A DNA stretch of 43,658 nucleotides from Candidatus Dojkabacteria bacterium UBA2177 (GTDB lineage Bacteria > Patescibacteriota > Dojkabacteria > SC72). This document shows positions 3,714 through 36,697 of the stretch, in pieces (position 1 is the first letter of the stretch; each line of letters opens with the position of its first letter). The stretch is taken from assembly GCA_002328805.1 (NCBI GenBank), contig DCVX01000032.1, positions 1 through 43,658 on the forward strand, written 5' to 3'. The notes beneath the pieces were generated by a model, which saw nothing but the letters and a program-made list of their open reading frames with translations, did no database searches and was not told where the DNA came from. The translations under genes and the position numbers were made by a program.

Positions 3714-5378
3714 ATGTCAAAATTTATCTTTATCTCTGGTGGTGTAATTTCTGGAATTGGGAAGGGTGTTTCCGCTGCTTCAATAGGTTTTCTCCTCAAA
3801 GCTTGTGGTAGGAAAATCAGCATGATTAAGGCAGATCCTTATCTCAATATCGATGCGGGGACTATGAACCCTCTCGAGCATGGAGAGACCTTTGTTTTAG
3901 ATGACGGTTTTGAAACAGATATGGATATAGGGACATACGAGAGGTTTACGAATCAATCGTTTGGTAGATCCAATTCTATGACGCTAGGAGCTGTTTTAGA
4001 CAGAGTCATTAAGAAAGAGAGATCTCTTGAGTTTGATGGCAAATGGGTAAGTTTAGATCATCATATTCCAGAGAACATAGTGGAGTGGATAACAGAAGTT
4101 GCAAAAAAAGAAAAGTCAGATATCACCATTATTGAAATAGGAGGAACTGTCGGAGAAGTTGGTAATGGACTTATGCTTACTGCAAATAAATTCATGAAGC
4201 TCTCTAACCCTAAGGACGTTATACATGTACACGTAACATATCTTCCTATCCCTCCAATGTTGGGAGAGATGAAGACTAAACCAGCACAGTTATCTGTTCA
4301 GCAACTTAATAGTTATGGTATTCATCCAGACTTTATAATTGCAAGATCTGAACAACCTCTAGACCAAGAGAGGATTGATAAAATTAGCAAGTACTGTTTT
4401 ATCCCTTCCTCTCACGTGATATCGGCTCCAGACATAGATTGTATCTATGACATTCCACTAAACTTTGGGAAGGCCAATCTTGGGGAGGAGATTCTAGATG
4501 CCCTTAATATGGAGAGGGGAAAAACGCCACTCTATCCTAACTGGAAAAAGAAGGTTAAGAAAATAAAAAATCCTAAAAAGAAGTTAAACATTGGAATAAT
4601 AGGGAAATATTACAAAAGCGGGGATTTTGATCTAAAGGATTCATATGTTTCTGTTTTAGAAGCAATAAACCATGCTTCATGGGAGAATTCTGTAGAACCT
4701 ACAATCCATTGGATAGTTGCAGATGGCTTAGAGAAGGACAAGAAAAAACAGGAAGAAATATTAAAGATGGATGGTATTATTGTTCCTCAGGGTTGGGGTT
4801 CTAGGGGGTCTGAAGGAAAGATTAAAGCTGTCCAGATTGCTAGAGAGAATAAGATTCCCTACTTAGGTCTCTGTTATGGTATGCAGATGGCCACTATTGA
4901 ATATGCTAGAAATGTTCTAGGTCTAAAAGATGCTAATTCCCAAGAAGTTGATTCTAAATCTCAGAATCAGGTTATACATCTAATGAAGGAACAACAAGAG
5001 TTATTAAAGAACAAAGAATATGGAGGGACTATTCGTCTAGGAGCTTGGCCATGTAGGTTAGATAAGGATTCTGTTGTTTACGAACAATATAAAAAATATA
5101 AGAATAATCTTTATACAAAACTCCCTGTTGTTATGGAAAGGCACAGACATAGATATGAATTTAATAATGAATATAGGGAAATTTTTGAGAAATCAGATTT
5201 TAAGTTATGTGGTAAGAGTCCAGATGGTATGCTAATTGAAGCTATAGAACTTCCAAAGGAAGTGCATCCATTTTTTGTTGGAACGCAGTATCACCCAGAA
5301 TTAAAGAGTAGATTCTTAGAACCACATCCTTTATTTATGGGTTTTATAGAAGCAAGTTTGAATAAAAATAGTAACTAA
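3714..5378 (+). CDS. pyrG: CTP synthase
   Basis: The start MSKFIFISGGVISGIGKGVSAASIG is the canonical PyrG N-terminus. The C-terminal class I glutamine amidotransferase has GLCYGMQ (catalytic Cys) and a ...HRHRYEFN... / ...QYHPE region. Confidence 0.96.
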   Translation: MSKFIFISGGVISGIGKGVSAASIGFLLKACGRKISMIKADPYLNIDAGTMNPLEHGETFVLDDGFETDMDIGTYERFTNQSFGRSNSMTLGAVLDRVIKKERSLEFDGKWVSLDHHIPENIVEWITEVAKKEKSDITIIEIGGTVGEVGNGLMLTANKFMKLSNPKDVIHVHVTYLPIPPMLGEMKTKPAQLSVQQLNSYGIHPDFIIARSEQPLDQERIDKISKYCFIPSSHVISAPDIDCIYDIPLNFGKANLGEEILDALNMERGKTPLYPNWKKKVKKIKNPKKKLNIGIIGKYYKSGDFDLKDSYVSVLEAINHASWENSVEPTIHWIVADGLEKDKKKQEEILKMDGIIVPQGWGSRGSEGKIKAVQIARENKIPYLGLCYGMQMATIEYARNVLGLKDANSQEVDSKSQNQVIHLMKEQQELLKNKEYGGTIRLGAWPCRLDKDSVVYEQYKKYKNNLYTKLPVVMERHRHRYEFNNEYREIFEKSDFKLCGKSPDGMLIEAIELPKEVHPFFVGTQYHPELKSRFLEPHPLFMGFIEASLNKNSN

Positions 5379-12477: not shown

Positions 12478-12532
12478 GGATAATCCCCTTTATATGATAC
12501 AATAGCTTGTTAACTTGTTGCAGAGGAATATT

Positions 12533-13468
12533 ATGGAAAATATATACGATATTGCTATCATTGGTGCAGGACCAGCCGGTTTAAGTGCAAGTATCTATGC
12601 AGGTAGGTATAAGCTTAAAAATATTGTTTTTGGAAAGCAAATAGGTGGAACAATTGCAGATGCTCACAAGGTATGTAATTACCCTGGTGTAGAAGATATA
12701 ACAGGATTAGAGCTTGGGACAAGGATGTATGAACAAGCAAAGAAAAACGGTGCCAACATCTCCCCTGAAAGCGTTGTTAGCGTAGAAAGAGAAGGAGATT
12801 TCTTTAAATTGGAAACAGATAATAAAAAAGAGATTCTTGCAAAGACAATAATACTTGCTACAGGAACAAAAAGGAATAAATTAGCAGTTCCTGGAGAGGA
12901 TGAATATTTAGGAAAAGGTGTTTCTTATTGTGCAACCTGTGATGCTATGTTTTGTAAAGAGAAGGTCGTTGGTGTAGTCGGAGGGAGTAATGCTGCAACG
13001 ATGGCTGCGACAATGTTGGCAGATATTGCAAAACAAGTTTATATTATTTATAGAGGCAATGAGCTTAGAGGGGAACCTGCTTGGATAGATGATGTTAAAT
13101 CTAAAAAGAATGTAGAAATTATCCTAAATACTGTAGTGACTGCAATAGAAGGAGATGGAACTGTCGAGAGAGTGAAATTGAGCAAGGAGTTTAACGGTTC
13201 CCAGTATCTTAATGTTAGTGCTTTATTTATAGAGATAGGAACTGAACCAAATGCTGATTTACCAGTTAAATTGGGTGTAGAACTAGATGAAAAACAGTAT
13301 ATAATTGTTAAAGATGACCAATCTACAAGTATAGAAGGTATCTGGGCGGCTGGTGATGCAACTACTAATTCAAATAAACTTCAACAGGTGGTAACTGCCG
13401 TTGGAGAAGGTGCTGTAGCAGCTAATTCAATATATTACTATCTAAAGGAAGATTCTAGTAGACACTAA
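12533..13468 (+). CDS. trxB: Thioredoxin-disulfide reductase
   Basis: FAD motif DIAIIGAGPAGLSASIYAGR, redox-active CATCD, NAD(P)H motif VVGGSNAA, and C-terminal GIWAAGD. I prefer the ATG at 12533 (MENIYD) over the track's TTG at 12515. Confidence 0.92.
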   Translation: MENIYDIAIIGAGPAGLSASIYAGRYKLKNIVFGKQIGGTIADAHKVCNYPGVEDITGLELGTRMYEQAKKNGANISPESVVSVEREGDFFKLETDNKKEILAKTIILATGTKRNKLAVPGEDEYLGKGVSYCATCDAMFCKEKVVGVVGGSNAATMAATMLADIAKQVYIIYRGNELRGEPAWIDDVKSKKNVEIILNTVVTAIEGDGTVERVKLSKEFNGSQYLNVSALFIEIGTEPNADLPVKLGVELDEKQYIIVKDDQSTSIEGIWAAGDATTNSNKLQQVVTAVGEGAVAANSIYYYLKEDSSRH

Positions 13469-14233: not shown

Positions 14234-14683
14234 ATGAAATGTCCATTTTGCTGTAGCGAAGAAACAAAAGTAGTAGATAAAAGAGATAATAAAGAGGATA
14301 GCTCTATAAGAAGAAGGCGGGAGTGCTTAAAATGCAGTAAGAGGTTTACTACCTATGAGAGGATAGAGAAGGCAGATTTGAGTATTGAGAAGAAAGACGG
14401 CTCTTTAGAGAGGTTTGATACTGAGAAAATTCTCAAAGGCATTAAGAAAGCTGTCGATCTTGACAAAATTCCAGAAGAGGAGATCGAAGACTTTGTAGAT
14501 GAGATTGAGAGGTATGTTTTTAATAAAGATGAGATTGTTAGGTCTGAAGAGATTGGTTTAATGGTTCTGGATTGGTTAAAAACAAAAGATTCTTTAGCTT
14601 ATATTAGGTTCGCATCTGTATATAAGGACTTTAAGAGTCTAGATGAAATTGTAAATGAAATAAAAGTTATACAAAAAATTTAA
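14234..14683 (+). CDS. nrdR: Transcriptional repressor NrdR (Zn-ribbon plus ATP-cone)
   Basis: MKCPFCCSEETKVVDKRDNKEDSSIRRRRECLKCSKRFTTYERIE is the canonical NrdR Zn ribbon, followed by an ATP-cone. The track's upstream extension (14153) covers the promoter and operator, so the ATG at 14234 is the likely start. Confidence 0.93.
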   Translation: MKCPFCCSEETKVVDKRDNKEDSSIRRRRECLKCSKRFTTYERIEKADLSIEKKDGSLERFDTEKILKGIKKAVDLDKIPEEEIEDFVDEIERYVFNKDEIVRSEEIGLMVLDWLKTKDSLAYIRFASVYKDFKSLDEIVNEIKVIQKI

Positions 14684-14700
14684 ATTATTAATATATAAAG

Positions 14701-17700
14701 ATGTCTGCCCAGAAAACTGCCAAGATGTTCAAAGTCAAGAAGAGAGATGGAAGAATAGTTGAATTCCAAAAAGAGAGATTAGCAACTGGAATATTCAAAG
14801 CTGCCGAAAGTGTTGGAGGTGAGGATAGGGAGAGAGCGAATGAGATTGCCGATGAAGTAGTTAGGAGATTAAAAGAGAAATATTCTGGTAAAGAATATGT
14901 TACCACAAAAAAAATTGCAGCTGTTACAACTCAAACCTTGATAGATATGGGTCATGGAAAGACTTCTGTAGCATTTGAATTGTTTGTAGACCTAAAGAAC
15001 CAAGTTAAGAATATCAAGTCACTTATAGATGCAGACACTCTTGTAAGCGGTTATATAGACAAGGTTGACTGGCAGGTTAATGAAAACAGTAATATGGCCT
15101 ATTCATGGCAAGGATTAAATCACTACATTTCCTCAACAGTCCAGGCCAACTACTGGTTACATAGTATATATCCCAAAGAGATTTCTAATGCGAATATAGA
15201 TAAGGATTTCCATATCCATGATTTAGGAATGTTAGCAACGTATTGTAATGGTTGGAGTTTAGAAGACTTACTTCTTAGGGGTTTTACTGGTGTAAAGGGT
15301 AAGATTTCTTGTGCTCCTCCAAAGCATTTTAGTACAGCATTGGGACAAGCTGTAAACTTTCTTTATACTCTTCAACATGAAGCTGCAGGTGCTCAAGCAT
15401 TTTCAAGTTTTGATACATATCTTGCACCCTTTATAAGATATGACAATCTTACTTACAAGCAAGTAAAGCAGAAAATGCAGGAATTCCTTTACAACATGAA
15501 TGTACCAACAAGAGTGGGGTGCCAGTGTGTGTCCGAAGACACTCAGATACTCACACCAAAAGGATGGGCAACGTACGAGGATATAAAAGAGGGTATTCTT
15601 ATAAAAACTTTTAATTTAGAAACAGGAGAAATAGAAAACCAAAAAGTCGAGTCTGTTTTTAAAGGTCAGTATAAAGGTGTTATGTACAATCTTAAAAATA
15701 GAATTCAGGATCAATTGATTTCTCCTGGGCATCGCGTAGTTAGAAAACTCTTCAATTCTGACAAATATATTTTAGAACCGATTGAGGAGGTTGCAAAATT
15801 AAAATCACCTATTGTAATTCCTATAGCAGGCGACAATACACTTAATGGTCATGTAGATCTATCAGATGAGCAGTTACGTTTAATGGCATGGATTATTAGT
15901 GAGGGTTCCATTGGGAAAAACGGGAAGCACAGGAGTTGTTATAGAGTTTCTATCTATCAGTCTAAACTAAAGAACAGAAAAAATTATGATGAAATTAAAA
16001 ATTTGTTAAATCATTTTGGTTTTAAATATTCAGAGACTGAAAAATCGGGACTAGGAGAACCTGTCGTAAGATTTAGAATAAATGCAGAAGGTTCAAAAAC
16101 TATTCACAAATGGTTTGGGAGTAAAGAAAATGTTAAGAGCATACCAAAAGATATTCTTAATTTAAATCTGGAAAAGTCTAGATTGTTTTTGAATACATAT
16201 ATCAAGGGCGATGGTCATGAAAGTTGTAAGATTTCTACAACTAGTTTAGAGATATTAAATGCCCTGCAAATTGTAGCTGTAAATGCTGGATATGGTTTTA
16301 CTGTTCTTACAAGAAAACCAACTTTAGGGAAAAAGAAAATATATGTTCTGCGATTAATTAAACATAAAAACACCTATATACAAGAGATTACAAAAGTTAA
16401 ATATGATGGAGTAATCTGGTGTCCACATACAAAAAATGAAACTATAATTGCAAAAAGAAATGGTAAGGTCTTTATTACAGGAAATACACCTTTTACAAAT
16501 ATAACTATGGATCTTGTTCCTAGTGGTCAATTAGCTGAACAGGGAGTAATTATTGGTGGGGAAATACAGAAAGAGAAATATAAAGATTTTGAAAAAGAAA
16601 TGGCTATGCTTAATAGAGCCTTCTGTGAAATTATGATGGAAGGAGATGCTCAAGGAAGACTATTCTCTTGGCCAATTCCTACATACAATATAACTAAAAA
16701 TTTTGATTGGAATAATCCTAAATACAAGCCTGTGTGGGAGATGACTGCAAAGTATGGTATTCCCTACTTCTCCAATTTCATGAATTCAGATATGAACCCA
16801 GATGATGCTAGGAGCATGTGCCTTCATCCCGAAGAAGAAATCGTTTACAAAGAAGGAGGAAATATAAAGAGAGGAAATATTGGTGATTTAGTAGAAAGTC
16901 ATAGAGGTGGAGAATATGATAAAGACGGTTGGGCAAAGATAAAAAAGAATGAAGGGTTAGAAGCATTGTCATTGGATTTAGAAAGTGGAAAAACAGAATG
17001 GGTTCCTATTATAAGATTTTTAAGGATTGAAGATGATGAACTTGTTAAATTGACCTTAGAGGATGGAAAAGAAATTAGGGTGTCTTCAAAGCATCTAATT
17101 CCTGTGTTAACCAAGGAGGGCTTTAAAAACAAAATGGCAAAAGATGTTGATAAAAATGACTACCTTCTTAACCTTAAACAAACAGATCAATTTAATACTA
17201 AGTATCAAAAAATTTCCAAAGATATAATTTTAGATGAGAGTGTAGCAAAGATTCTTGGCTATTTTGTTGCTGATGGTAATTATCTGAAAGAGAGTAGAAA
17301 AAACATGAAGCTGTGTGGAGAACCAAAAGGTTTACAGTTTACATTTAATTCAAAAACAAAGGAAAACTTAAAAGAGATTAAAAAGCTATTAAAAGATTGT
17401 TTTAATGTTTCTACTAAAGAAAAACAAGATCCTAGATACAACACCTACTACCTTTATGTCTATGATTCTATGATGGCACGAACATTAAAAGAAGCAGGGT
17501 TTGAAAAGTATGGAAGATTACCAAACATACTTTTTAATTCCCCAAAGACAGTCATAGAAGCTTTCTTGGATTACCACTTTAAGGGAGATGGTTATGAAAA
17601 AAGAGAAGAGGTTCATATAAATGATTTGGAACTAGCAAGAGACCTTACTCTTCTGTATTCCTTAATTGGAAAACCAGTAACATATAAAGAGAGAGGGAAT

Positions 17701-18939
17701 AGTCAAAGGATATATGTACAGCATCAAAAGAATGAGATTGCCAAGGATGGTAAATTAGCAGGACCAACAATAGCGAATCGTGTCCCAGGCTTTCTTGCTA
17801 AGTCTACATATCTGGTACCTGGTCTAAACAAGAGCAGAATGGTTGGTTTTGCTGCTTTAGAGAAATACAAAGCGCAAACTAAGGAAAGTAAATATATTCA
17901 AGATTCAGATTTTTACGTAGTTAGAGTTAAAGAAATATCTAAAAAGAAATTAGATAAAAAAATCTCTTTCTTTGACATTGAACTGGCTAAAAATCATCTC
18001 TTTGTCCATTCATTGGGAACTATTACCCATAATTGTTGCCGACTCAGAATCGACAACAGAGAACTTAAGAAAAGAGGTGGTGGCCTCTTTGGAGCCAATC
18101 CTCTTACAGGTAGTATTGGTGTTGTTACAATTAATCTTCCTCGTATAGGTTACTTGAGTAAAGATAAGGAAGAATATTTCAAGAGACTAGATGAACTTAT
18201 GGATTTGGCTAAGAAGAGTCTTGTTATTAAGAGAAAGTTTATTGAGAGATATATAAATGCTGGGTTATATCCATACTCACGCTTCTATTTAGACAATATC
18301 AAGAAGAGGTTTAAGGAATATTATAAGAACCACTTTAATACTATTGGAATACTTGGAATGAATGAGTCTATGATTAATTTCTTCAAAGACAAGGAGAAAG
18401 GAATTGCCTCAAAAGAAGGAAGAGAATTTGCCTTGGAGATTATGGATCATATGAGAGAAAGGTTAAAGGAGTATCAGAAAGAAACTAACAGTTTGTTTAA
18501 TTTAGAAGCTACCCCTGGAGAAAGTACTACTTATAAGTTTGCAAAAGCAGACAGAAAAAAGTTTGGTAAAGATATAATTACTGCTGCGGAAATTGGTGCA
18601 CAGAAATCTAAGACCCCATACTACACAAACAGTACTCATCTACCAGTTGGTTACACAGATGACATTTTTGAAGCTTTAGATTTGCAGGATGAATTCCAAA
18701 CTAAATATACAGGAGGAACAGTTGTACACCTCTTCCTCGGAGAGAAGATGCCAACTGGAGAATCTGTCAAAAACTTGGTAAGAAAGGTTTGTGAGAATTA
18801 TTCTCTACCCTACTTCTCCATAACTCCGACTTTCAGTGTCTGTCCCAATCATGGTTATATTTCTGGAGAGCATGAGTTTTGCCCATCATGTGACCAAGAA
18901 GCTGGCTATGAAGAAGGAATGCCTTTTTATGAGAAATAA
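14701..18939 (+). CDS. nrdD: Anaerobic (class III) ribonucleoside-triphosphate reductase large chain, precursor with two inteins; ORF lacks the glycyl-radical loop
   Basis: The N-terminal ATP-cone reads FKVKKRDGRIVEFQKERL. Extein motifs are NVPTRVGCQ/TPFTNITMD, RSM/CCRLRIDNRELKKRGGGLFGANPLTGSIGVVTINLPRIG and YYTNSTHLPV. The C-terminal Zn site is CPNH...CPSC. After removing inteins of 320 and 405 aa, 687 aa remain. Confidence 0.93.
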   Translation: MSAQKTAKMFKVKKRDGRIVEFQKERLATGIFKAAESVGGEDRERANEIADEVVRRLKEKYSGKEYVTTKKIAAVTTQTLIDMGHGKTSVAFELFVDLKNQVKNIKSLIDADTLVSGYIDKVDWQVNENSNMAYSWQGLNHYISSTVQANYWLHSIYPKEISNANIDKDFHIHDLGMLATYCNGWSLEDLLLRGFTGVKGKISCAPPKHFSTALGQAVNFLYTLQHEAAGAQAFSSFDTYLAPFIRYDNLTYKQVKQKMQEFLYNMNVPTRVGCQCVSEDTQILTPKGWATYEDIKEGILIKTFNLETGEIENQKVESVFKGQYKGVMYNLKNRIQDQLISPGHRVVRKLFNSDKYILEPIEEVAKLKSPIVIPIAGDNTLNGHVDLSDEQLRLMAWIISEGSIGKNGKHRSCYRVSIYQSKLKNRKNYDEIKNLLNHFGFKYSETEKSGLGEPVVRFRINAEGSKTIHKWFGSKENVKSIPKDILNLNLEKSRLFLNTYIKGDGHESCKISTTSLEILNALQIVAVNAGYGFTVLTRKPTLGKKKIYVLRLIKHKNTYIQEITKVKYDGVIWCPHTKNETIIAKRNGKVFITGNTPFTNITMDLVPSGQLAEQGVIIGGEIQKEKYKDFEKEMAMLNRAFCEIMMEGDAQGRLFSWPIPTYNITKNFDWNNPKYKPVWEMTAKYGIPYFSNFMNSDMNPDDARSMCLHPEEEIVYKEGGNIKRGNIGDLVESHRGGEYDKDGWAKIKKNEGLEALSLDLESGKTEWVPIIRFLRIEDDELVKLTLEDGKEIRVSSKHLIPVLTKEGFKNKMAKDVDKNDYLLNLKQTDQFNTKYQKISKDIILDESVAKILGYFVADGNYLKESRKNMKLCGEPKGLQFTFNSKTKENLKEIKKLLKDCFNVSTKEKQDPRYNTYYLYVYDSMMARTLKEAGFEKYGRLPNILFNSPKTVIEAFLDYHFKGDGYEKREEVHINDLELARDLTLLYSLIGKPVTYKERGNSQRIYVQHQKNEIAKDGKLAGPTIANRVPGFLAKSTYLVPGLNKSRMVGFAALEKYKAQTKESKYIQDSDFYVVRVKEISKKKLDKKISFFDIELAKNHLFVHSLGTITHNCCRLRIDNRELKKRGGGLFGANPLTGSIGVVTINLPRIGYLSKDKEEYFKRLDELMDLAKKSLVIKRKFIERYINAGLYPYSRFYLDNIKKRFKEYYKNHFNTIGILGMNESMINFFKDKEKGIASKEGREFALEIMDHMRERLKEYQKETNSLFNLEATPGESTTYKFAKADRKKFGKDIITAAEIGAQKSKTPYYTNSTHLPVGYTDDIFEALDLQDEFQTKYTGGTVVHLFLGEKMPTGESVKNLVRKVCENYSLPYFSITPTFSVCPNHGYISGEHEFCPSCDQEAGYEEGMPFYEK
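15526..16485 (+). mobile_element. Intein 1 in NrdD (320 aa) with LAGLIDADG homing-endonuclease domain
   Basis: It begins CVSEDTQILTPKGW (block A) and has ISPGHRV (block B). The LAGLIDADG motifs are LRLMAWIISEGS and LFLNTYIKGDGHE. The end is ...WCPHTKNETIIAKRNGKVFITGN followed by +1 Thr. Excision restores RVGCQ-TPFTNIT, the conserved NrdD sequence. Confidence 0.85.
16819..18033 (+). mobile_element. Intein 2 in NrdD (405 aa) with LAGLIDADG homing-endonuclease domain
   Basis: It begins CLHPEEEIVY and has block B VSSKHLIPV. The LAGLIDADG motifs are KILGYFVADGNY and AFLDYHFKGDGYE. The end is FFDIELAKNHLFVHSLGTITHN followed by +1 Cys. Excision restores DDARSM-CCRLRID. Confidence 0.9.
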
Positions 18940-18962
18940 TTAAATTTTTATATATTTAAACA

Positions 18963-19103
18963 ATGTCTAACAAAAAAGTTCCAAGACAAAGATGCGAGGT
19001 TTATTCTCGTGTAGTTGGTTATCTGAGTCCTGTTTCTCAATGGAATGTTGGGAAAAAAGCAGAATGGTCAGATAGGAAAACCTACTGTATAAGTGAGGGA
19101 TAG
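18963..19103 (+). CDS. 46-aa stand-alone glycyl-radical peptide of class III RNR (detached NrdD C-terminus)
   Basis: This ORF is absent from the ORF track because it is under 60 aa. My translation is MSNKKVPRQRCEVYSRVVGYLSPVSQWNVGKKAEWSDRKTYCISEG. SRVVGY...WN.GK..E..DR is the NrdD glycyl-radical signature. The ORF sits 23 nt after the nrdD stop in a different frame and ends 4 nt before the nrdG ATG. Confidence 0.7.
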   Translation: MSNKKVPRQRCEVYSRVVGYLSPVSQWNVGKKAEWSDRKTYCISEG

Positions 19104-19107
19104 GCAT

Positions 19108-19803
19108 ATGCTCAAGATTACTGGTTTAGAAAGGTCTTCCCTTTTGGATTATCCGGGGAAGATCTCCGCAATAATATTTACTCATGGTTGTAATCTAAGG
19201 TGTCCTTACTGTCACAATCCTGAGTTGGTTATAGAAGGATTTAACAAAAGTGAAAGTTTTAGTGAAGATGATGTTTTAACCTTTTTAGAATCTCGAAAAG
19301 GAAAACTAGATGCTTTAGTGATAACTGGAGGAGAGCCTTTAGTGCAGAGGGATCTGCTTCCGTTCATAAAGAAAGTTAAAGATATGGGTTTCTTGGTAAA
19401 GCTAGATACTAACGGAACATTCCCAGACAAGCTAAAGGATTTTATCGAGACTGGCCTTATAGATTATATTGCTATGGATGTTAAGTATCCCAAGGTTGGA
19501 TATGTTAAGAACTCTATGATTCCTGGTGTAGCTAGGAAGATAGAGAAATCTATTAAGATAATCATGGATTCAGAATTAGATTATGAATTTAGAACTACCT
19601 ATGTTAAACCATTACATTCCTTTGAATCGGCTGAAGAGATTGGGAAAATGATTAAAGGAGCGAAAAATTACTACATACAGAATTTTAGACCAGGTAAGAC
19701 TATAGAACCTACTTTGACTAAAGAAAACTCATTCACAACTAAAGAGCTGGGAGAAATTAAAAAGACCATAGAAAAGTATGTAGAGAATGTTCAAATTAGA
19801 TAG
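19108..19803 (+). CDS. nrdG: Anaerobic ribonucleotide reductase activating protein (radical SAM)
   Basis: The radical SAM cluster motif is GCNLRCPYCHNPE (CxxxCxxC), with the SAM motif ITGGEPL. The ATG at 19108 has GAGGGA about 8 nt upstream and is preferred over the track's GTG at 19093. Confidence 0.9.
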   Translation: MLKITGLERSSLLDYPGKISAIIFTHGCNLRCPYCHNPELVIEGFNKSESFSEDDVLTFLESRKGKLDALVITGGEPLVQRDLLPFIKKVKDMGFLVKLDTNGTFPDKLKDFIETGLIDYIAMDVKYPKVGYVKNSMIPGVARKIEKSIKIIMDSELDYEFRTTYVKPLHSFESAEEIGKMIKGAKNYYIQNFRPGKTIEPTLTKENSFTTKELGEIKKTIEKYVENVQIR

Positions 19804-20443
19804 GATTTTCTAGAACTTTTATAACCTTCCCATTAAACATAACATCTGTGTCTTTATCCAGAAAGATTGGCTGATTAAGAGGATTAGTAGATTCTGGGTA
19901 AAGAGTTATCATGCCATCTCCCTTCTTAAATCTTTTAACAGTTGCACTATTCTCTATAATAGCGACTACAACATCTCCATCTTTAATTTCTGCATTTTTC
20001 TGAACTATTAGGTAACTTCCCTCCTCTATATTTTTACCTTCTACCTCTGCCAGATCCATAGAGTCGCCTTTAACAATTAGGGCAAAAAGGTCATTCTTCT
20101 TTTTTACTAACTTAGGATCTATCTTAATATGACCTAAGTTTTCCTCCTCTGCACTAACAAGCGGAGTTCCCGCATTGGCATACCCCAAGATAGGTACTCC
20201 AATTAGGTAGTCGTATACTATCTCCTCATCATTATCTACGATATGTATACCCCTTGGGTCTCCCGTCCTAATGATATACCCCTTCTTCTCTAAAGCAATT
20301 AAGTGGTTAACAACTCCTCTTTTTGTAGATATTCCTAAAAACTCCTGTAACTCACCCAAAGATGGAGCTTGTCCATTTTCTAGGTAGCACTGTCTTATTA
20401 TTCTAAGTACTTTCTCTTGCTTCTTTGTAAGTATACCTCCCAT
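19796..20443 (-). CDS. lexA: LexA repressor (S24 self-cleaving)
   Basis: The N-terminal winged HTH reads LTKKQEKVLRIIRQCYLENGQAPSLGELQEFLGISTKRGVVNHLIALEKKGYI. The C-terminal peptidase S24 has VKGDSM (Ser) and TVKRF (Lys). Confidence 0.9.
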   Translation of the reverse strand: MGGILTKKQEKVLRIIRQCYLENGQAPSLGELQEFLGISTKRGVVNHLIALEKKGYIIRTGDPRGIHIVDNDEEIVYDYLIGVPILGYANAGTPLVSAEEENLGHIKIDPKLVKKKNDLFALIVKGDSMDLAEVEGKNIEEGSYLIVQKNAEIKDGDVVVAIIENSATVKRFKKGDGMITLYPESTNPLNQPIFLDKDTDVMFNGKVIKVLENPI

Positions 20444-21034: not shown

Positions 21035-21108
21035 CGGGGAGTAGTTCAGATGGCTAGAACGCTGCGTTTGGGACGCAGAGGCCGCAGGTTCAAGTCCTGT
21101 CTCCCCGA
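21035..21108 (+). tRNA. tRNA-Pro (anticodon UGG)
   Basis: It folds by hand into a cloverleaf. The acceptor is CGGGGAG/CTCCCCG plus discriminator A. The anticodon stem is CTGCG/CGCAG with loop TTTGGGA (TGG at 21069-21071). The T-arm is GCAGG-TTCAAGT-CCTGT. No CCA is encoded. Confidence 0.92.
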
Positions 21109-21139: not shown

Positions 21140-24100
21140 TTAGTTCCCTCTTCTTATGCTCATTATTTTGTCGATGTCTAAATGTGGTTTGGCTTTCTCT
21201 CCTACTACAGTACTGGCAGATATCCTTTGTTCAGTATCACCTGGTATTGGCCAATTATATTCAAGGTTCCCTTCTCCAAGTGCTCTTAATCGCATTATCG
21301 GTTGTGCTCTTAGTGTAACTGTGTCACCCTTATGAATTTGATTTAGATCTGCCAAATTCTTAAAAAGCCTCATCGTTTTAACATTCCCTCTCTTATCCCT
21401 AACCATTAAATTACAATATTCGTCTCCATCATTCTTCACACCATTAGACCTACTCACAACCGTTAAATCTTCAAACTCAATCATTAACCCTGGCATATTA
21501 ACACCATATGGGTTAGTTTGCTTATACATGCTTGCAGCAATAGTGTCCGCAACATCAAAAGTGTTTACATACTCTCTGTAATCACCTAGATATCCCCATC
21601 CTTCCTCTTCTAAGCTCTGTGCTGTTCTCTCTATAACCTCTTCCACTTTAACAATTCCTGCGTCTGGATTCTCTATCTCATACTTTAAGAATATTGGGTC
21701 CAGAACCTCATGCAACTTCTCTTTTCCTCCCTTAACTTCCCACGTTCCTCCTGCAGCTTCTGGATGCCCACCATGTGCCAGTATTTTTATTCCTGGGATT
21801 TCGTTTATTGCCAACCCTAACTGAACCATATCTGCAGCAACGTTTCCCTTAGCTGGTAATCTGAAAGATACACTGTATCTTCCTGCAGTACCATTTGTTT
21901 CTGCTTTCTCCTCAACTATAACCATCGTTGGCTTTTCATACCTACCTGCAAGCTGACCCGCTATTAAACCTCTAAGACCCTTTGTGGGATCTACATACTT
22001 TCGTCCTTCAAGTTTAGTTATTATTATTGGTTTTTCCAATTCACCATGGTTATTATCTAAATCCTTAGCTATCTGTTCAAAAAGTTCCTCTCTTCTCTCG
22101 ATAGAAACCTCCTGAGCATAAACAAGTGTATGTCTATGTCTCCTTGTAGTCTCATTGTCACTTCTACGAATACAAAAATCTGCAGCTTCTGTCCAGAACT
22201 CCTTGGCTCTCTCAGACCTTTCCTCTTTCCCTCTTCTATACATAGCATTAACAAATGCAGAAACTCCATGGGTGAGTAATCTAGACAGATGCCAATTAAC
22301 AGACTTAATATGCGTCCCTCTTAGAGACGTCCTAATAAGTCGTAAGATTTCGGGCTGTATGCGTTTCAATTCACTCTTTTCTTGTCCAGTTGCTTCCCAA
22401 TAATCATCTGTGAATTTCTCTATTGCATTCATTCCGTTTCTTACAATTGCTCTGTTCTCTCTCCCCTTCCCTAAATCAACAGAGCCTCCGTCTCCTAGTG
22501 TTGCTGTAGCTTCTGTTAAATTAATAAATTCAAACCCATATGGACCATATTTAAAGAAGGAATCAACAGCTCTCATCTCCATAGGTGTAAGCCTCTTCCT
22601 CTTTTGTAATCTCTCTATTACTTCATTCCAAATTTTGTTTCCTTCATATCTAACCTTTGTTCTCTTATCTGGGACTTCTCCTGTTCTTGGGTTCTCTGGA
22701 ATACCACCATTTTCGTCATACCCTTGCTCAATTAGGTCGAACAGATGAATCTTTAAGTCTCTCAAGTTTAGAATCTTGTCAGGATTGTCGTCAGGGAGTA
22801 ATGCTCTTTGAACGATATCTGTTAAATTTATAGAGAAACTACCGTCTATTGCCTCAATCTCGGCAGTCCTATCTATTTCAGTAGATAATTTAAATAGTGT
22901 TGGTAAAATATATTCTTCCTTTTCATCTTTTGGCAAAAGGAAGAACGATTTGGGAAGTCTTTTTGCATAATCTAAGTAAAAGCGAAGTTCTCCTTTACTA
23001 AGAATATCACTCTCTGTAACTTCTTCTATTCTTCTTTTGTAAAGAGTGTCTATTTTGTCGATGGTCCGATTACTTACGGAATCTTTATCTAGAGAAAAAC
23101 TTTCTTCCTTTATATAGCTGAGAAAATCTTCCTTGTTGTTTATAACTAGCCCCCATTTTGCCTCTAGTTCTTTTAGTAGTGTGATGCTCTCCTCTTGGCT
23201 TAAACCGTTCTGTTTTATTCTAGTTACATAATGTCCAAGGGAGCTGACAGATTGGTTAATCCTGGAGGTTATCTTGTCCATCGGGGCCTTCTCCATCCAG
23301 AGTCCTTCTAAAGATAACTCTATATCCGTATCCTCGTCTAGCATTATATGTATCTCTGTTGGCAGAGGTAAATCCTCTGTGCTCTCCTTTGAACCTTTAG
23401 ATACAATTTGAGCAAGCTCTCTATATTTATTCTTGCGTGCTTCAGCATCAAGAGAATAAATTTCTGTTGCTTCTTCTCTGACAATCTCCTCATCTGTTAA
23501 TAGTTGGAGAAACCTTTTAATTACTTTCCCCGTCGTTACTGTGCCTACTATGTCTGATTCTGGGTAACAAGTATATTTTCTTTGTACCTTGTTAATCTCT
23601 TCGATATTGACCTCTCCCTTATCATTTGGTTTTAGGGCTAGTTTCATCTCCTCAATAAATTTCTCTTCGTAGCCATTGCGAACCCATTCGGGATTAACCA
23701 TTATTACATCCTCATTATCTCTGAAGTATTCAATAGCCTCTATTGAAGGTGTATGGTGATCACATACAATTATTTTCAAATCAGGGAATCCTTCTAGGAA
23801 GTAAACTAATGGAGCATAATCACTAAGTGATTTGTATTCAGGTTTTTTGTTGTTAGAATCATCGATATATGTCTTCCCAGTTGTAAACCTTGTTTCAAGG
23901 AGCTCTGTTAAGTCTAAATCTTTGTCATCCTTATGTTCGTTAATAAACCTTGTTAACTTTGTTTTAATTTGTCTCTGTACGTGCTTTGTCAAACTGCTAA
24001 AACCTTGTATCCCTTCTATGTTTTCTCTAAAGAATAGAAGGTCCTCTATAGATTGGACACCGTTCTTAATTAATGAAAAGGTTTTGGTATCTTGTTCACT

Positions 24101-26194
24101 AGAGCCTGTGTCGTTAATAATTATAAGATCACTCCCTTTAAGAGCAAGGTTTAATAAGTCTCTAGGCTGAACAGCATGGCCTTCTAGTCTAGTGTTAAAT
24201 TTCTGTTCTACATCATCTACACCTACGTGTTCCAGTATCCATCTCCAGTTTATTGATGCAAAGAAACCATCTTGGTCACAGTCTCCTATGGTTGCAATCT
24301 TATTATTGCTGACCACCGTTCTGTATACTATTTTTGCAGCCTTATCTACATTCTGCAACGCACTAGGAGGCTCTTCTGCATTTTCATTTGGGAACATTGC
24401 CTCTAACATTTCTTTTTTGTTCTCAACTCCTAAGGATTTATAATATTCATTAAGCATATTATTTGCTATTAGACCTTCTAAAACCTCCACATAACGAAGG
24501 TCTCCGTAAACCCTATCTGAGAGATATTTATTTTGCTCAAGTTGCTCTTCTGTAAAATCACTTCTTCTAGGAGGAGACCCTGTAGGAAAAATTCTTTCAA
24601 AGACAGGCTCCTGTAAGACATCTAGGAGCATTCTGATTTCGAGTCCCTTGTCGTCATATGGGTTTACTAAAACATCACTAATTAATTCTAGATCCAACCT
24701 GTATCTCCACGCAGGTCTAACATTTCTTATCTTTGTTGGAACTGCTATGTCAATTAGTATTTCATCATCTAGAGCATCCTGTAATGAAAGAATAGCTTTA
24801 TATTCTTCTTCATTCATGTCATGCAGATAAAGAGCCTTATGTCCTGATTCGAGTCTTTTTATAAGCATTAATATTGTTTGGAACTCTTCTTTACTTATAT
24901 GTTCTAAACCACTTCGAGGTGTTTTTCCTATTCTTCTGAGACTGTCTAATGATGTTTTAAGCCTATTAACTGCAGAATCTCTGTCGAGAAGTTCAACAAC
25001 TAGTTCGAGTTTTTCAATCGCGATGGATTCATCAAATGTTAAGACCTCTTTCGCTTCTGTATCTTCTTCATCTTTTTCTGCTCTTTCAAGAGTTCCTCGT
25101 GTTTTGCTCATCCTCTCTGCCAGTGAGACTAGGCTTTCTATATCTTCTTCTGAGAGAATATCTAAATGATTGTTCTGGTCTAGAAGGATTGTCTTGTTTA
25201 TTATTGCTCTGGCATCTATACAAATCTCTTTTCTCTTCTCTAGGATATACTTAGTAGAAAGGCTTGGAGATAATGGTATGGAACCTCTAAGAAGCTCTGC
25301 AGCTTGAGAGTTTATCTGGTAAGCAAAAAATGTTAGTTCTATCATTTTGTCTAGTGCTTCCTCATCTTCTGTTGCACCAAGTTCTTTCTCTGCTAACAAT
25401 ATTGACAATGCCTCTGCGGAATCATTTGCAACAAGAGAATGTTCAAACCAGTGCGAAGATATGGCCACAGGTCTCTGTGACAAACCTCCCTGCGAAGATG
25501 GAACGATATGCTGGTCATGTTTATTTATATAGGTAGGACCACTTGAGTTTATCTTTTCTACTCTTTGGTGATGAAGAATTAGATCATCTAGATCTATCTC
25601 TAATATGTCTGCATATTTCCGAGCAAGTTTTACATCTATCTCCTCAGAATCTAATTTGCCCTCTCCGACCCATTCTTCTTCTGTGATCCACTCTTCGTTT
25701 GTTGCAAGCTGTGTCCCCTTTGCAAGAAGACTAAGTGCTTCAATTATTGAACACCCTGAGGTAACAAGATATTTAACAACTTCCTGCTGTATCGCTTTCC
25801 TGTATCCTGGGCGATTAAGTCCCTCTTCTCTATTCTCTCTTTGTGATGAAGAAACAATGGTCTTTAAGACGACCTTTGGTTCAAAAAGGTCTCCTTTGTC
25901 TAGTGTTCTAGCTCTCTTCTTTTGAGATTCCTTAGATTCATACTCTGTAACTTCTTCTTGTCCAAATACATATCTTCCCTGTTCAGCTAATTCTTCTGTA
26001 GTTAATAGAATATCTGAGAATTTTCTTCCTGTGGAAGTTATCTTGTTATCAAAAATCTCATCCTTGAGAGTTCTAAGACGCATTTCCATTGTCGGATCTT
26101 CGAGAGTTGCTTCAAACCAATTCTCGTATCTTGGAGAGAATTCTGCCTTATCTATATTTACTTGACTCAAGTTTCTTTCTTCTTGCTTATTCAT
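21140..26194 (-). CDS. Giant RecJ-like DHH/DHHA1 phosphoesterase (putative ssDNA exonuclease) with very large insertions
   Basis: 1684 aa. RecJ motifs occur in the canonical order: IATIGDCDQDG (aa 633-643), DLIIINDTGSS (aa 689-699), IIVCDHHTP (aa 808-816) and ATLGDGGSVDLGKGRENRAIVRNGMNAI (aa 1231-1258). They continue with GLRGLIAGQLAGRYEKPTMVI (aa 1406-1426), GRYSVSFR, AHGGHPEAAGG (aa 1473-1483) and NPYGVNMPGLMIEF (aa 1561-1574), then an OB-like C-terminus. I cannot assign aa 1-630 or about 820-1230. Confidence 0.8.
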   Translation of the reverse strand: MNKQEERNLSQVNIDKAEFSPRYENWFEATLEDPTMEMRLRTLKDEIFDNKITSTGRKFSDILLTTEELAEQGRYVFGQEEVTEYESKESQKKRARTLDKGDLFEPKVVLKTIVSSSQRENREEGLNRPGYRKAIQQEVVKYLVTSGCSIIEALSLLAKGTQLATNEEWITEEEWVGEGKLDSEEIDVKLARKYADILEIDLDDLILHHQRVEKINSSGPTYINKHDQHIVPSSQGGLSQRPVAISSHWFEHSLVANDSAEALSILLAEKELGATEDEEALDKMIELTFFAYQINSQAAELLRGSIPLSPSLSTKYILEKRKEICIDARAIINKTILLDQNNHLDILSEEDIESLVSLAERMSKTRGTLERAEKDEEDTEAKEVLTFDESIAIEKLELVVELLDRDSAVNRLKTSLDSLRRIGKTPRSGLEHISKEEFQTILMLIKRLESGHKALYLHDMNEEEYKAILSLQDALDDEILIDIAVPTKIRNVRPAWRYRLDLELISDVLVNPYDDKGLEIRMLLDVLQEPVFERIFPTGSPPRRSDFTEEQLEQNKYLSDRVYGDLRYVEVLEGLIANNMLNEYYKSLGVENKKEMLEAMFPNENAEEPPSALQNVDKAAKIVYRTVVSNNKIATIGDCDQDGFFASINWRWILEHVGVDDVEQKFNTRLEGHAVQPRDLLNLALKGSDLIIINDTGSSEQDTKTFSLIKNGVQSIEDLLFFRENIEGIQGFSSLTKHVQRQIKTKLTRFINEHKDDKDLDLTELLETRFTTGKTYIDDSNNKKPEYKSLSDYAPLVYFLEGFPDLKIIVCDHHTPSIEAIEYFRDNEDVIMVNPEWVRNGYEEKFIEEMKLALKPNDKGEVNIEEINKVQRKYTCYPESDIVGTVTTGKVIKRFLQLLTDEEIVREEATEIYSLDAEARKNKYRELAQIVSKGSKESTEDLPLPTEIHIMLDEDTDIELSLEGLWMEKAPMDKITSRINQSVSSLGHYVTRIKQNGLSQEESITLLKELEAKWGLVINNKEDFLSYIKEESFSLDKDSVSNRTIDKIDTLYKRRIEEVTESDILSKGELRFYLDYAKRLPKSFFLLPKDEKEEYILPTLFKLSTEIDRTAEIEAIDGSFSINLTDIVQRALLPDDNPDKILNLRDLKIHLFDLIEQGYDENGGIPENPRTGEVPDKRTKVRYEGNKIWNEVIERLQKRKRLTPMEMRAVDSFFKYGPYGFEFINLTEATATLGDGGSVDLGKGRENRAIVRNGMNAIEKFTDDYWEATGQEKSELKRIQPEILRLIRTSLRGTHIKSVNWHLSRLLTHGVSAFVNAMYRRGKEERSERAKEFWTEAADFCIRRSDNETTRRHRHTLVYAQEVSIERREELFEQIAKDLDNNHGELEKPIIITKLEGRKYVDPTKGLRGLIAGQLAGRYEKPTMVIVEEKAETNGTAGRYSVSFRLPAKGNVAADMVQLGLAINEIPGIKILAHGGHPEAAGGTWEVKGGKEKLHEVLDPIFLKYEIENPDAGIVKVEEVIERTAQSLEEEGWGYLGDYREYVNTFDVADTIAASMYKQTNPYGVNMPGLMIEFEDLTVVSRSNGVKNDGDEYCNLMVRDKRGNVKTMRLFKNLADLNQIHKGDTVTLRAQPIMRLRALGEGNLEYNWPIPGDTEQRISASTVVGEKAKPHLDIDKIMSIRRGN

Positions 26195-36623: not shown

Positions 36624-36697
36624 TGGTTGCGGGACATGGACTCGAACCATGATCGACGGCTTCAAAGGCCGGTGTCCTACCATTAGACGATCCCGCA
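36624..36697 (-). tRNA. tRNA-Gln (anticodon UUG), CCA encoded
   Basis: The reverse complement is TGCGGGA-TC-GTCT-AATGGTA-GGAC-A-CCGGC-CTTTGAA-GCCGT-CGAT-CATGG-TTCGAGT-CCATG-TCCCGCA-A-CCA. This gives a full cloverleaf with T33, anticodon TTG and A37. Confidence 0.9.

Follow-up and report, generated by a model that had tools for sequence, protein, structure and literature searches.

The contig DCVX01000032.1 of Candidatus Dojkabacteria bacterium UBA2177 (assembly GCA_002328805.1), analysed here over positions 1 to 43,658 (a stretch of 43,658 nucleotides, nt, called the window below), carries a class III ribonucleotide reductase (RNR) gene, nrdD, that ends short of the glycyl-radical loop, while a 46-codon open reading frame (ORF) lying between nrdD and the activase gene nrdG encodes that loop. 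By definition, a glycyl radical enzyme is one chain that bears its own radical glycine. Judging from the sequence comparisons set out below, the locus very probably specifies a two-subunit class III RNR, composed of a loop-less core and a separately translated radical peptide that would act in trans, and the split arrangement is far more widespread than this one locus would lead one to expect.

Two open reading frames jointly make one NrdD

The elements of the locus, all of them on the forward strand, are the following.

14701..18939 (+): nrdD core ORF, a precursor of 1412 amino acids (aa) with NF006126, TIGR02487 and Pfam NRDD matches
18841..18891 (+): zinc site CPNH-x9-CPSC, the core's final conserved element, read from the sequence
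18892..18939 (+): acidic C-terminal tail DQEAGYEEGMPFYEK (15 aa, net charge -4) together with the stop TAA
18937-18939 (+): nrdD stop codon TAA, read from the sequence
18940..18962 (+): A/T-rich spacer of 23 nt, in which TAA 18957-18959 closes the mini-ORF frame upstream
18963..19103 (+): mini-ORF of 46 aa, from ATG 18963 to TAG 19101-19103, in a frame that differs from that of nrdD
19017-19019 (+): codon of the radical glycine, Gly19, within the mini-ORF loop CEVYSRVVG19Y
19108..19803 (+): nrdG, a radical-SAM (S-adenosylmethionine) activase of the NrdG2 type (TIGR02495 at 199 bits, cut-off 131; Pfam Radical_SAM and Fer4_12)

The core ORF comprises an ATP-cone, the class III RNR barrel, two inteins, the zinc site and the acidic tail, and the glycine-radical loop is absent from it. 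Its zinc site aligns with the CxxC...CxxC of the P. copri (8P23) and T. maritima (4COI) NrdDs. The mini-ORF product, MSNKKVPRQRCEVYSRVVGYLSPVSQWNVGKKAEWSDRKTYCISEG, is laid out as a basic leader (MSNKKVPRQR, net +4), the radical loop CEVYSRVVG19Y and a surface tail, SPVSQWNVGKKAEWSDRKTY, and its gene ends 4 nt (gcat) before the nrdG ATG at 19108. Every coordinate given in a preliminary description of this DNA, made from the sequence alone, held when we re-read the sequence and its ORFs.

Profile searches divide one NrdD between the two frames almost without remainder. The NCBIfam NrdD model TIGR02487 is covered by the big ORF up to position 549 of 581 and by the mini-ORF from 548 to 580 of 581 (E=3e-9 for the mini-ORF), and Pfam PF13597 by the big ORF up to position 530 of 562 and by the mini-ORF over 531-562 of 562, at 37.7 bits against a cut-off of 26.2. 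The scores of the big ORF are high throughout (NF006126, 945 bits, cut-off 548; TIGR02487, 477 bits, cut-off 326; PF13597, 573 bits). The two observations from which the preliminary description had started, namely that nrdD stops after the zinc site and short of the radical loop, and that the mini-ORF carries the NrdD radical motif, are thus borne out, the former by the halt of profile coverage at 549/581 and 530/562 and the latter by matches of the mini-ORF to the last 32 NrdD positions. The two ORFs jointly make one complete NrdD, and neither does so alone.

The structural glycyl radical domain of NrdD consists of the zinc site, the Gly loop and the C-terminal tail, and the earlier wording that this domain as a whole had become detached needs to be narrowed: the Gly loop and the C-terminal tail are detached, and the zinc ribbon remains on the core. 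The NrdD barrel, the Cys finger loop, the C-terminal zinc site and an adjoining NrdG are all present, as in class III RNRs generally, and the radical glycine motif (RVxGY) is found only in the 46-aa ORF and not on the barrel chain, for which reason we class the enzyme as a variant rather than as a canonical member. No second glycyl-radical motif occurs elsewhere in the window. In the Pfam scan (E<=0.1) PF13597 was the sole significant match to the mini-ORF, with none to PF01228 (Gly_radical), and neither NCBIfam nor Pfam holds a family dedicated to the peptide.

Conservation of the split and selection on the mini-ORF

No fewer than 23 contigs, drawn from at least six independent metagenomes and assemblers, encode the identical 46-aa peptide, with the same stop-to-start distance and with nrdG next. 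A second strain (contigs L004, L006 and L008, which are without intein 1) shows nine nucleotide differences across 18880-19110; seven of these fall within the mini-ORF, where none of them, a two-base serine switch from AGT to TCT included, alters the peptide, and the spacer is unchanged. Over the 34 core codons of the mini-ORF, compared with 17 more distant loci, the ratio of nonsynonymous to synonymous differences (pN/pS) was 0.06-0.33, with synonymous sites near saturation. By this pattern of substitution the split is inherited and under purifying selection. Together with the broad conservation at variable spacing and order described next, the independent assemblies and the synonymous strain variation support what had been proposed initially, that nrdD is truly split and that the radical piece is a small protein of its own.

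Distribution and gene order in cellular genomes

The search for homologues of the peptide returned 262 proteins, among the source names of which are Patescibacteria, Halanaerobiales and Bacillota. The 120 best matches are without exception stand-alone proteins, 41-80 aa long, and share an invariant block, C-E-x-Y-S-R-V-V-G...P...W-N..K..E; 13 alignment columns are invariant. The peptide of the window has a cysteine close to its end, C42 (window 19086-19103), and Cys-rich tails (CGC, CPTC, CxC, CxxC) end many of the peptides (P0015, P0018, P0030, L018, L021, L022, L047 and others) and some fused relatives; such tails recall the redox-shuttle tails of class I and class II RNRs.

On the side of the core, the preliminary description had reckoned with a contiguous nrdD in close relatives, which would make the present gene a lesion; the nearest 120 core homologues (74-96% identity, named Dojkabacteria or WS6) are, to the last one, without the Gly loop. 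Further afield, 1.84 billion cluster representatives were searched exhaustively and the 50%-identity clusters nearest the window core were taken from them; of the 130 classifiable nearest NrdD clusters, 68 are without the Gly loop and 62 are fused. A rough neighbour-joining tree, which carries no support values, shows a few large clades of split forms with the fused forms scattered among these; it is indicative only, and would make the split an old condition that underwent roughly two to four changes. Some other loop-less cores (P0367, P0371, P0375, P0380, P0480 and others) have CP[YF]xHT in place of the second CxxC, and cores of the P0367 type end in a conserved, helical-looking tail, ...EELE[RK][FY]G...LLKLPKEAY.

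When genomes were scanned for CEVYSRVVG, one genome per species, at least 600 matched; among the best 80, which were classified, the gene is split in 55 and fused in 22. The split carriers comprise Patescibacteria, DPANN and Thermoplasmatota archaea, Synergistota and Halanaerobiales, cultured isolates included, and they do not keep to one arrangement. The order core-peptide-nrdG, with gaps of -4 to 346 nt, is that of Dojkabacteria, Saccharibacteria, Parcubacteria-type groups, DPANN and Thermoplasmatota, and the order core-nrdG-peptide, with 708-868 nt from core to peptide, that of Halanaerobiales and Synergistota. In Halarsenatibacter silvermanii and Halanaerobium isolates nrdD (690 and 680 aa) also ends after the zinc site, and this truncated core is followed by nrdG and then by the peptide gene behind a strong Shine-Dalgarno motif. 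A third order, peptide-core, is seen on the phage-like contig L133 (3241-6422), where a peptide gene with a Shine-Dalgarno motif stands directly upstream of a loop-less, intein-containing nrdD beside a DNA-polymerase-like gene. All three frame relations occur among the split loci, and so do overlaps such as ATGA and TAATG. Since gaps, frames and gene orders vary in this way across lineages, the two parts would be made as separate chains.

The break point and a structural model

Only 3-8 residues separate the second CxxC from the Gly loop in fused relatives of the subfamily and in solved NrdDs, e.g. CPKCTIKQPCEVYSRVVGY, and it is to this short linker between zinc site and Gly loop of the solved NrdDs that the break maps. 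The split forms have about 20 extra residues at the break, made up of the acidic core tail and the basic peptide leader: the core tail is net negative in 50 of the 55 split loci (mean -3.5) and the peptide leader net positive in 48 (mean +2.4). The fused linkers are neutral, and short-linker fused NrdDs are without the acidic tail. As regards the loop itself, the conserved cysteine of the peptide (CEVYSRVVGY), considered as a zinc ligand and set aside, is replaced by Val or Asp in T. maritima and by Thr, Ala or Ser in some phage copies.

An AlphaFold2 model was built from a diverse alignment with core and peptide concatenated covalently, and reached a mean predicted local distance difference test score (pLDDT) of 88.3 and a predicted template-modelling score (pTM) of 0.82; an earlier run, the alignment of which was shallow at the N-terminus, had given a mean pLDDT of 60.8. 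The Gly loop and tail (residues 691-730) are modelled at pLDDT 81-89, and at the junction (681-690) the value falls to 56. Against the NrdDs of S. thermophilus, P. copri, T. maritima and T4 the target-normalised template-modelling score is up to 0.75. The low confidence at the junction, the high confidence of the Gly loop and the match to the NrdD fold together suggest that the chain is broken within a flexible connector, and by the prediction the peptide takes up the canonical position of the radical loop.

Phage copies and orphan peptides

Relatives of the peptide are encoded on 335 contigs of IMG/VR (those concerned here are L015/L016 and L097-L176). Among the best 80 of these 335, about 61 have a short ORF (40-113 aa) and lack both an NrdD core and nrdG within 6 kb of it; a fused nrdD is present in just about six. 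In one group of phages the peptide gene is lodged between the large terminase and portal genes (8 loci, e.g. L015 5001-5180), and other phage copies adjoin tail-fibre, head-tail adaptor or HNH genes. Some phage contigs have two peptide copies, and one fully covered contig of 17.7 kb is without a core. Many phage copies bear an acidic N-terminal extension (MTELxNGDLxLDNG...), and in some the cysteine is changed to threonine. A collection of cultured phages, searched with the orphan peptide, gave three matches, all weak.

Orphans also occur in cellular genomes. In one Falkowbacteria genome a peptide gene (L025 3986-4147) is placed in the mraZ-rsmH-ftsL cell-division cluster, between rsmH (mraW) and an ftsL/DivIC-like gene, and both the NrdD core and nrdG are absent within 4 kb of it. 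Desulfobacterota have proteins of about 108 aa that join a zinc ribbon (CHDC...CxxC) to the Gly loop (PF13597 511-562), encoded beside rpsA or asmA at the following places.

L057, about 3780-4108: zinc ribbon and Gly loop
L061, 3752-4114: zinc ribbon and Gly loop
L063: zinc ribbon and Gly loop
L087, 3782-4105: zinc ribbon and Gly loop

The ANME-1 archaeal virus ANMV-1 (KP703175.1; L177 2686-3120) encodes a protein of the same make, 144 aa long and annotated simply as nrdD. These zinc-ribbon and Gly-loop proteins of about 108-144 aa amount to a complete radical domain and are candidates for a GrcA-like counterpart to NrdD. Because the orphan phage copies have no core nearby, they point to a peptide used in trans, and to go by their gene neighbourhoods orphan copies can only work in that way.

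How the two parts may work together, and the alternatives

Oxygen cuts glycyl radical enzymes at the radical glycine, and in a fused NrdD the activase can be met only if the radical domain swings outwards. In P. copri NrdD the mobility of the radical domain is coupled to regulation by the ATP-cone (PMC11226230). For a core and a peptide made apart, the following course of events may be envisaged. NrdG with SAM would abstract the pro-S hydrogen from Gly19 of a peptide that is either free or already docked, and a free peptide would be an easy substrate for NrdG; the Gly loop of the peptide would then insert into the barrel beside the Cys finger loop (SMCCRL) and generate the thiyl radical for nucleotide reduction, with the WNxGKxxEWxDR segment of the peptide on the surface, as in the solved fused NrdDs, and the basic peptide leader and the acidic core tail would help to hold the parts together near the zinc ribbon. 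After oxygen cleavage at the radical glycine, the cell would have to remake 46 aa and not a 1412-aa precursor that splices twice. That detachment turns the oxygen-labile part into a cheap, exchangeable consumable is a hypothesis that we put forward tentatively. With the same reserve, the peptide could be regarded as a diffusible 5-kDa radical cofactor protein, charged by NrdG, sacrificed to oxygen and replaced, and phages that carry orphans may exploit the same exchangeability; the orphan copies of phages and of some bacteria and archaea, loops of about 45 aa as well as zinc-ribbon and loop proteins of about 110 aa, would then serve to recharge, repair or take over the RNR of the cell.

Several points weigh against parts of this interpretation. 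The genome was seen through the 43.6 kb of the window, and a further RNR or a fused nrdD may lie elsewhere. The mini-ORF has no Shine-Dalgarno motif, although this is also absent from most of the 22 window genes examined. The chains of the model are covalently joined, and the model is hence silent on their non-covalent assembly. Fused forms with a long linker of similar flavour exist (L038, L048 and L075); they look like the unsplit ancestor or a re-fusion. Finally, as far as a benefit of exchange or repair is concerned, a neutral fission would give the identical genomic picture.

Neutral fission is indeed the principal alternative. It agrees with our reading of what the locus is and disputes only why the split exists: a stop or a frameshift arose in a long flexible linker, and the fragments reassemble permanently, with no role in exchange, repair or regulation. 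The fused long-linker relatives just named and the flexible, low-confidence junction of the model speak for it, as do the split NrdJa/NrdJb (PMC9669993) and Aeh1 NrdA-a/b (PMC3653736), which tolerate fission without a known benefit. Set against this are the maintenance of the split across very large and old clades, in which, by the neighbour-joining tree, it seemingly arose or reverted several times, the complementary charge acquired by tails and leaders, and the orphan copies far from any core in phages and in some cellular genomes, which are difficult to account for unless the peptide can act in trans on a core encoded elsewhere. We regard neutral fission as possible, though on balance doubtful.

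It is, by comparison, quite unlikely that the peptide is a spare part or a regulator for a full-length NrdD encoded elsewhere, the adjacent core being inactive or otherwise employed. Orphan peptides and the proteins of about 110 aa with zinc ribbon and Gly loop, which stand away from any core, would fit such a role, and the restriction of the genome to the window leaves room for it. However, the core keeps an NxN-type flap region, the CCRL finger loop, the zinc site and the ATP-cone at 74-96% identity, it is always co-located with the peptide and nrdG, and there is no second RNR within the window.

We give still less weight to recoding, by which ribosomes would frameshift or hop over the 23-nt gap (from AAA 18934-36 to AAA 18972-77, in the manner of T4 gene 60) and make one fused chain; this seems very improbable, even though a possible AAA take-off codon stands immediately before the stop and the mini-ORF has AAA codons in frame near its beginning. 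A programmed bypass or frameshift of the T4 gene 60 or prfB type was rejected on the grounds that gap length, frame relation and gene order are not conserved in relatives: gaps range from -4 to 868 nt, the frame relations are three, the order is reversible, and nrdG sometimes lies between the parts. Moreover, many peptides have a strong Shine-Dalgarno motif of their own, conservation of the ATG and the basic leader is that of coding sequence, and the Rfam scan, which found two tRNAs and a glmS ribozyme as its only matches in the window, was empty at the split site. An A/U-rich motif like TTTAAATTATTA is found in the leader of nrdD itself and in the core-peptide spacers of related Dojkabacteria and Saccharibacteria (L017-L091). 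It was considered as a recoding or RNA signal and set aside, since it also precedes nrdD and since most genes have A/U-rich leaders without Shine-Dalgarno motifs; it is probably the ordinary composition of start regions in this lineage. As regards an internal promoter or a leaderless start for the mini-ORF, one sigma-70-like match lies at 18929-18956, in a region where promoter-like sites number 23 against 24.4 expected from shuffles, and terminator-like matches in the region are also at chance level.

As for artefact or decay, a split essential gene in metagenome-derived sequence is a frequent sign of error, but that the assembly or the sequencing is at fault here, or that nrdD has decayed into a pseudogene, is hardly credible in view of the identical sequence from so many contigs, samples and assemblers, the second strain whose mini-ORF differs by synonymous changes only, the strong purifying selection and the retention of the arrangement in isolate genomes. 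In the data at hand nothing points to the two compensating errors that the preliminary description had named as one way in which a single ORF might be restored, and its remark that one indel cannot fuse the ORFs is correct, the frames being different and that of the mini-ORF being closed by TAA 18957-18959.

Inteins and genomic surroundings

The remaining features of the RNR cluster and its immediate boundary are these.

14234..14683 (+): nrdR, a Zn-ribbon and ATP-cone repressor of RNR genes, directly 5' of nrdD (Pfam PF22811/PF03477 on the identical contig L001)
15526..16485 (+): intein 1, 320 aa (aa 276-595), CVSEDTQ...VFITGN|T, inserted after PTRVGCQ
16819..18033 (+): intein 2, 405 aa (aa 707-1111), of the LAGLIDADG type, CLHPEEE...GTITHN|C
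19796-20443 (-): lexA repressor gene, convergent with nrdG and overlapping its end by 8 nt

The junctions of both inteins are confirmed by a natural intein-free allele (P0121, 687 aa, 96% identity), which at the site of intein 1 reads PTRVGCQ|APFTN, and the NrdD of strain L004 has 1092 aa, that is, 1412 minus 320. Intein 2, identified by Pfam Intein_splicing and LAGLIDADG_3 and by the NCBIfam intein N- and C-terminal models, interrupts the catalytic Cys finger loop (SM|CCRL), and SMCCRL is restored on its removal. With both inteins removed a core of 687 aa is obtained. Alleles with no, one and two inteins (687, 1092 and 1412 aa) coexist in one population. An origin of the split from a group I/II intron, a homing endonuclease gene or split-intein halves was rejected: the spacer has just 23 nt, tail and leader are without intein motifs, and both inteins lie elsewhere.

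Around the cluster, a thioredoxin-reductase-like gene lies near the locus (12515-13468), and an ORF of 1684 aa (21140-26194, -), with no Pfam match on record, is kept beside the nrd-lexA cluster on sister contigs. Genes of DNA repair and replication (mutL, uvrB, uvrC and dnaE) lie at 31-43 kb of the window. The glmS ribozyme (1942-2080, -) stands upstream of an ORF of 596 aa at 119-1909, and the two tRNA genes are at 21035-21108 (+) and 36627-36697 (-).

Relation to known systems and significance

The canonical NrdDs (T4, E. coli, T. maritima, P. copri and S. thermophilus) share with the enzyme described here the fold, the ATP-cone, the Cys finger loop, the zinc site and RVVGY, and their activase is likewise of the NrdG2 type; in all solved and described NrdDs, however, one chain runs on from the zinc site to the Gly loop over about 3-10 residues, whereas here the chain is broken at that place and about 20 residues are added. 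In class I RNRs, too, the stable radical resides on a chain (R2) apart from the catalytic barrel (R1), but R2 is a di-metal, ferritin-like protein without homology to the peptide, in which a tyrosyl or metal radical acts by long-range transfer, whereas here the radical residue would sit inside the active-site barrel.

Catalytic subunits made from two or more ORFs are known from the class II NrdJa/NrdJb of Pseudomonas aeruginosa (PMC9669993) and from the NrdA-a/NrdA-b of Aeh1 (PMC3653736), and phage nrdD genes are found in pieces due to introns, inteins or homing endonucleases (PMC12880540, PMC3653736). These other splits concern other classes or other sites, mostly go back to introns, inteins or homing endonucleases, and occur in certain lineages only, and none of them detaches the radical loop as a conserved mini-protein.

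The closest functional parallels are GrcA/YfiD of E. coli and Y06I of T4, which are, like the peptide here, small stand-alone proteins with a radical glycine loop, presumably charged by the cognate radical-SAM activase, and which act in trans on a large chain (PMC8683613, PMC13450708). A phage-encoded version is found on either side, Y06I for pyruvate formate-lyase (PFL) and the orphan phage copies for the NrdD-type peptide. However, GrcA is homologous to the C-terminus of PFL (Gly_radical), has about 14 kDa and is disordered in its N-terminal half, whereas the peptide is homologous to NrdD and has 5 kDa; and GrcA is a backup to an intact PFL with a loop of its own, whereas the peptide partners a loop-less core, the 120 nearest core homologues being loop-less as well. 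Because the core has no loop at all, the peptide would be an obligate subunit and not a spare. The likeness to GrcA/YfiD drawn in the preliminary description is therefore apt as a way of working, but extends neither to family kinship nor to the role of a spare beside an intact enzyme. Substitutes of the GrcA type might be found among the orphan copies of phages and Desulfobacterota.

A paper on YfiD of 2021 (PMC8683613) and a review of June 2026 (PMC13450708) treat spare-part proteins as established only for PFL and as an open question for other glycyl radical enzymes. Our full-text searching of the literature found no description of a split NrdD with a detached radical loop, in agreement with the initial impression that the arrangement was undescribed, though absence there is no proof; the family-wide analyses of RNRs that were consulted (including PMC9669993) do not mention it. 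Annotation pipelines label both parts "anaerobic ribonucleoside-triphosphate reductase" or miss the peptide, with the consequence that RNR inventories of these phyla and of phages are misread.

The radical loop thus appears to have been detached repeatedly or anciently in much of Patescibacteria, in DPANN, in Synergistota and in cultured Halanaerobiales, and to occur alone in phages. If the peptide does work as an exchangeable cofactor, it would be the first spare-part or exchangeable radical subunit for a glycyl radical enzyme other than PFL, and would add a new class of auxiliary genes to those of phages. The detachment also raises the questions of how the activase gains access to the glycine, whether the radical subunit can be exchanged and how oxygen-sensitive symbionts with tiny genomes come by their DNA precursors, all of which could be addressed with cultivable organisms and simple recombinant parts.

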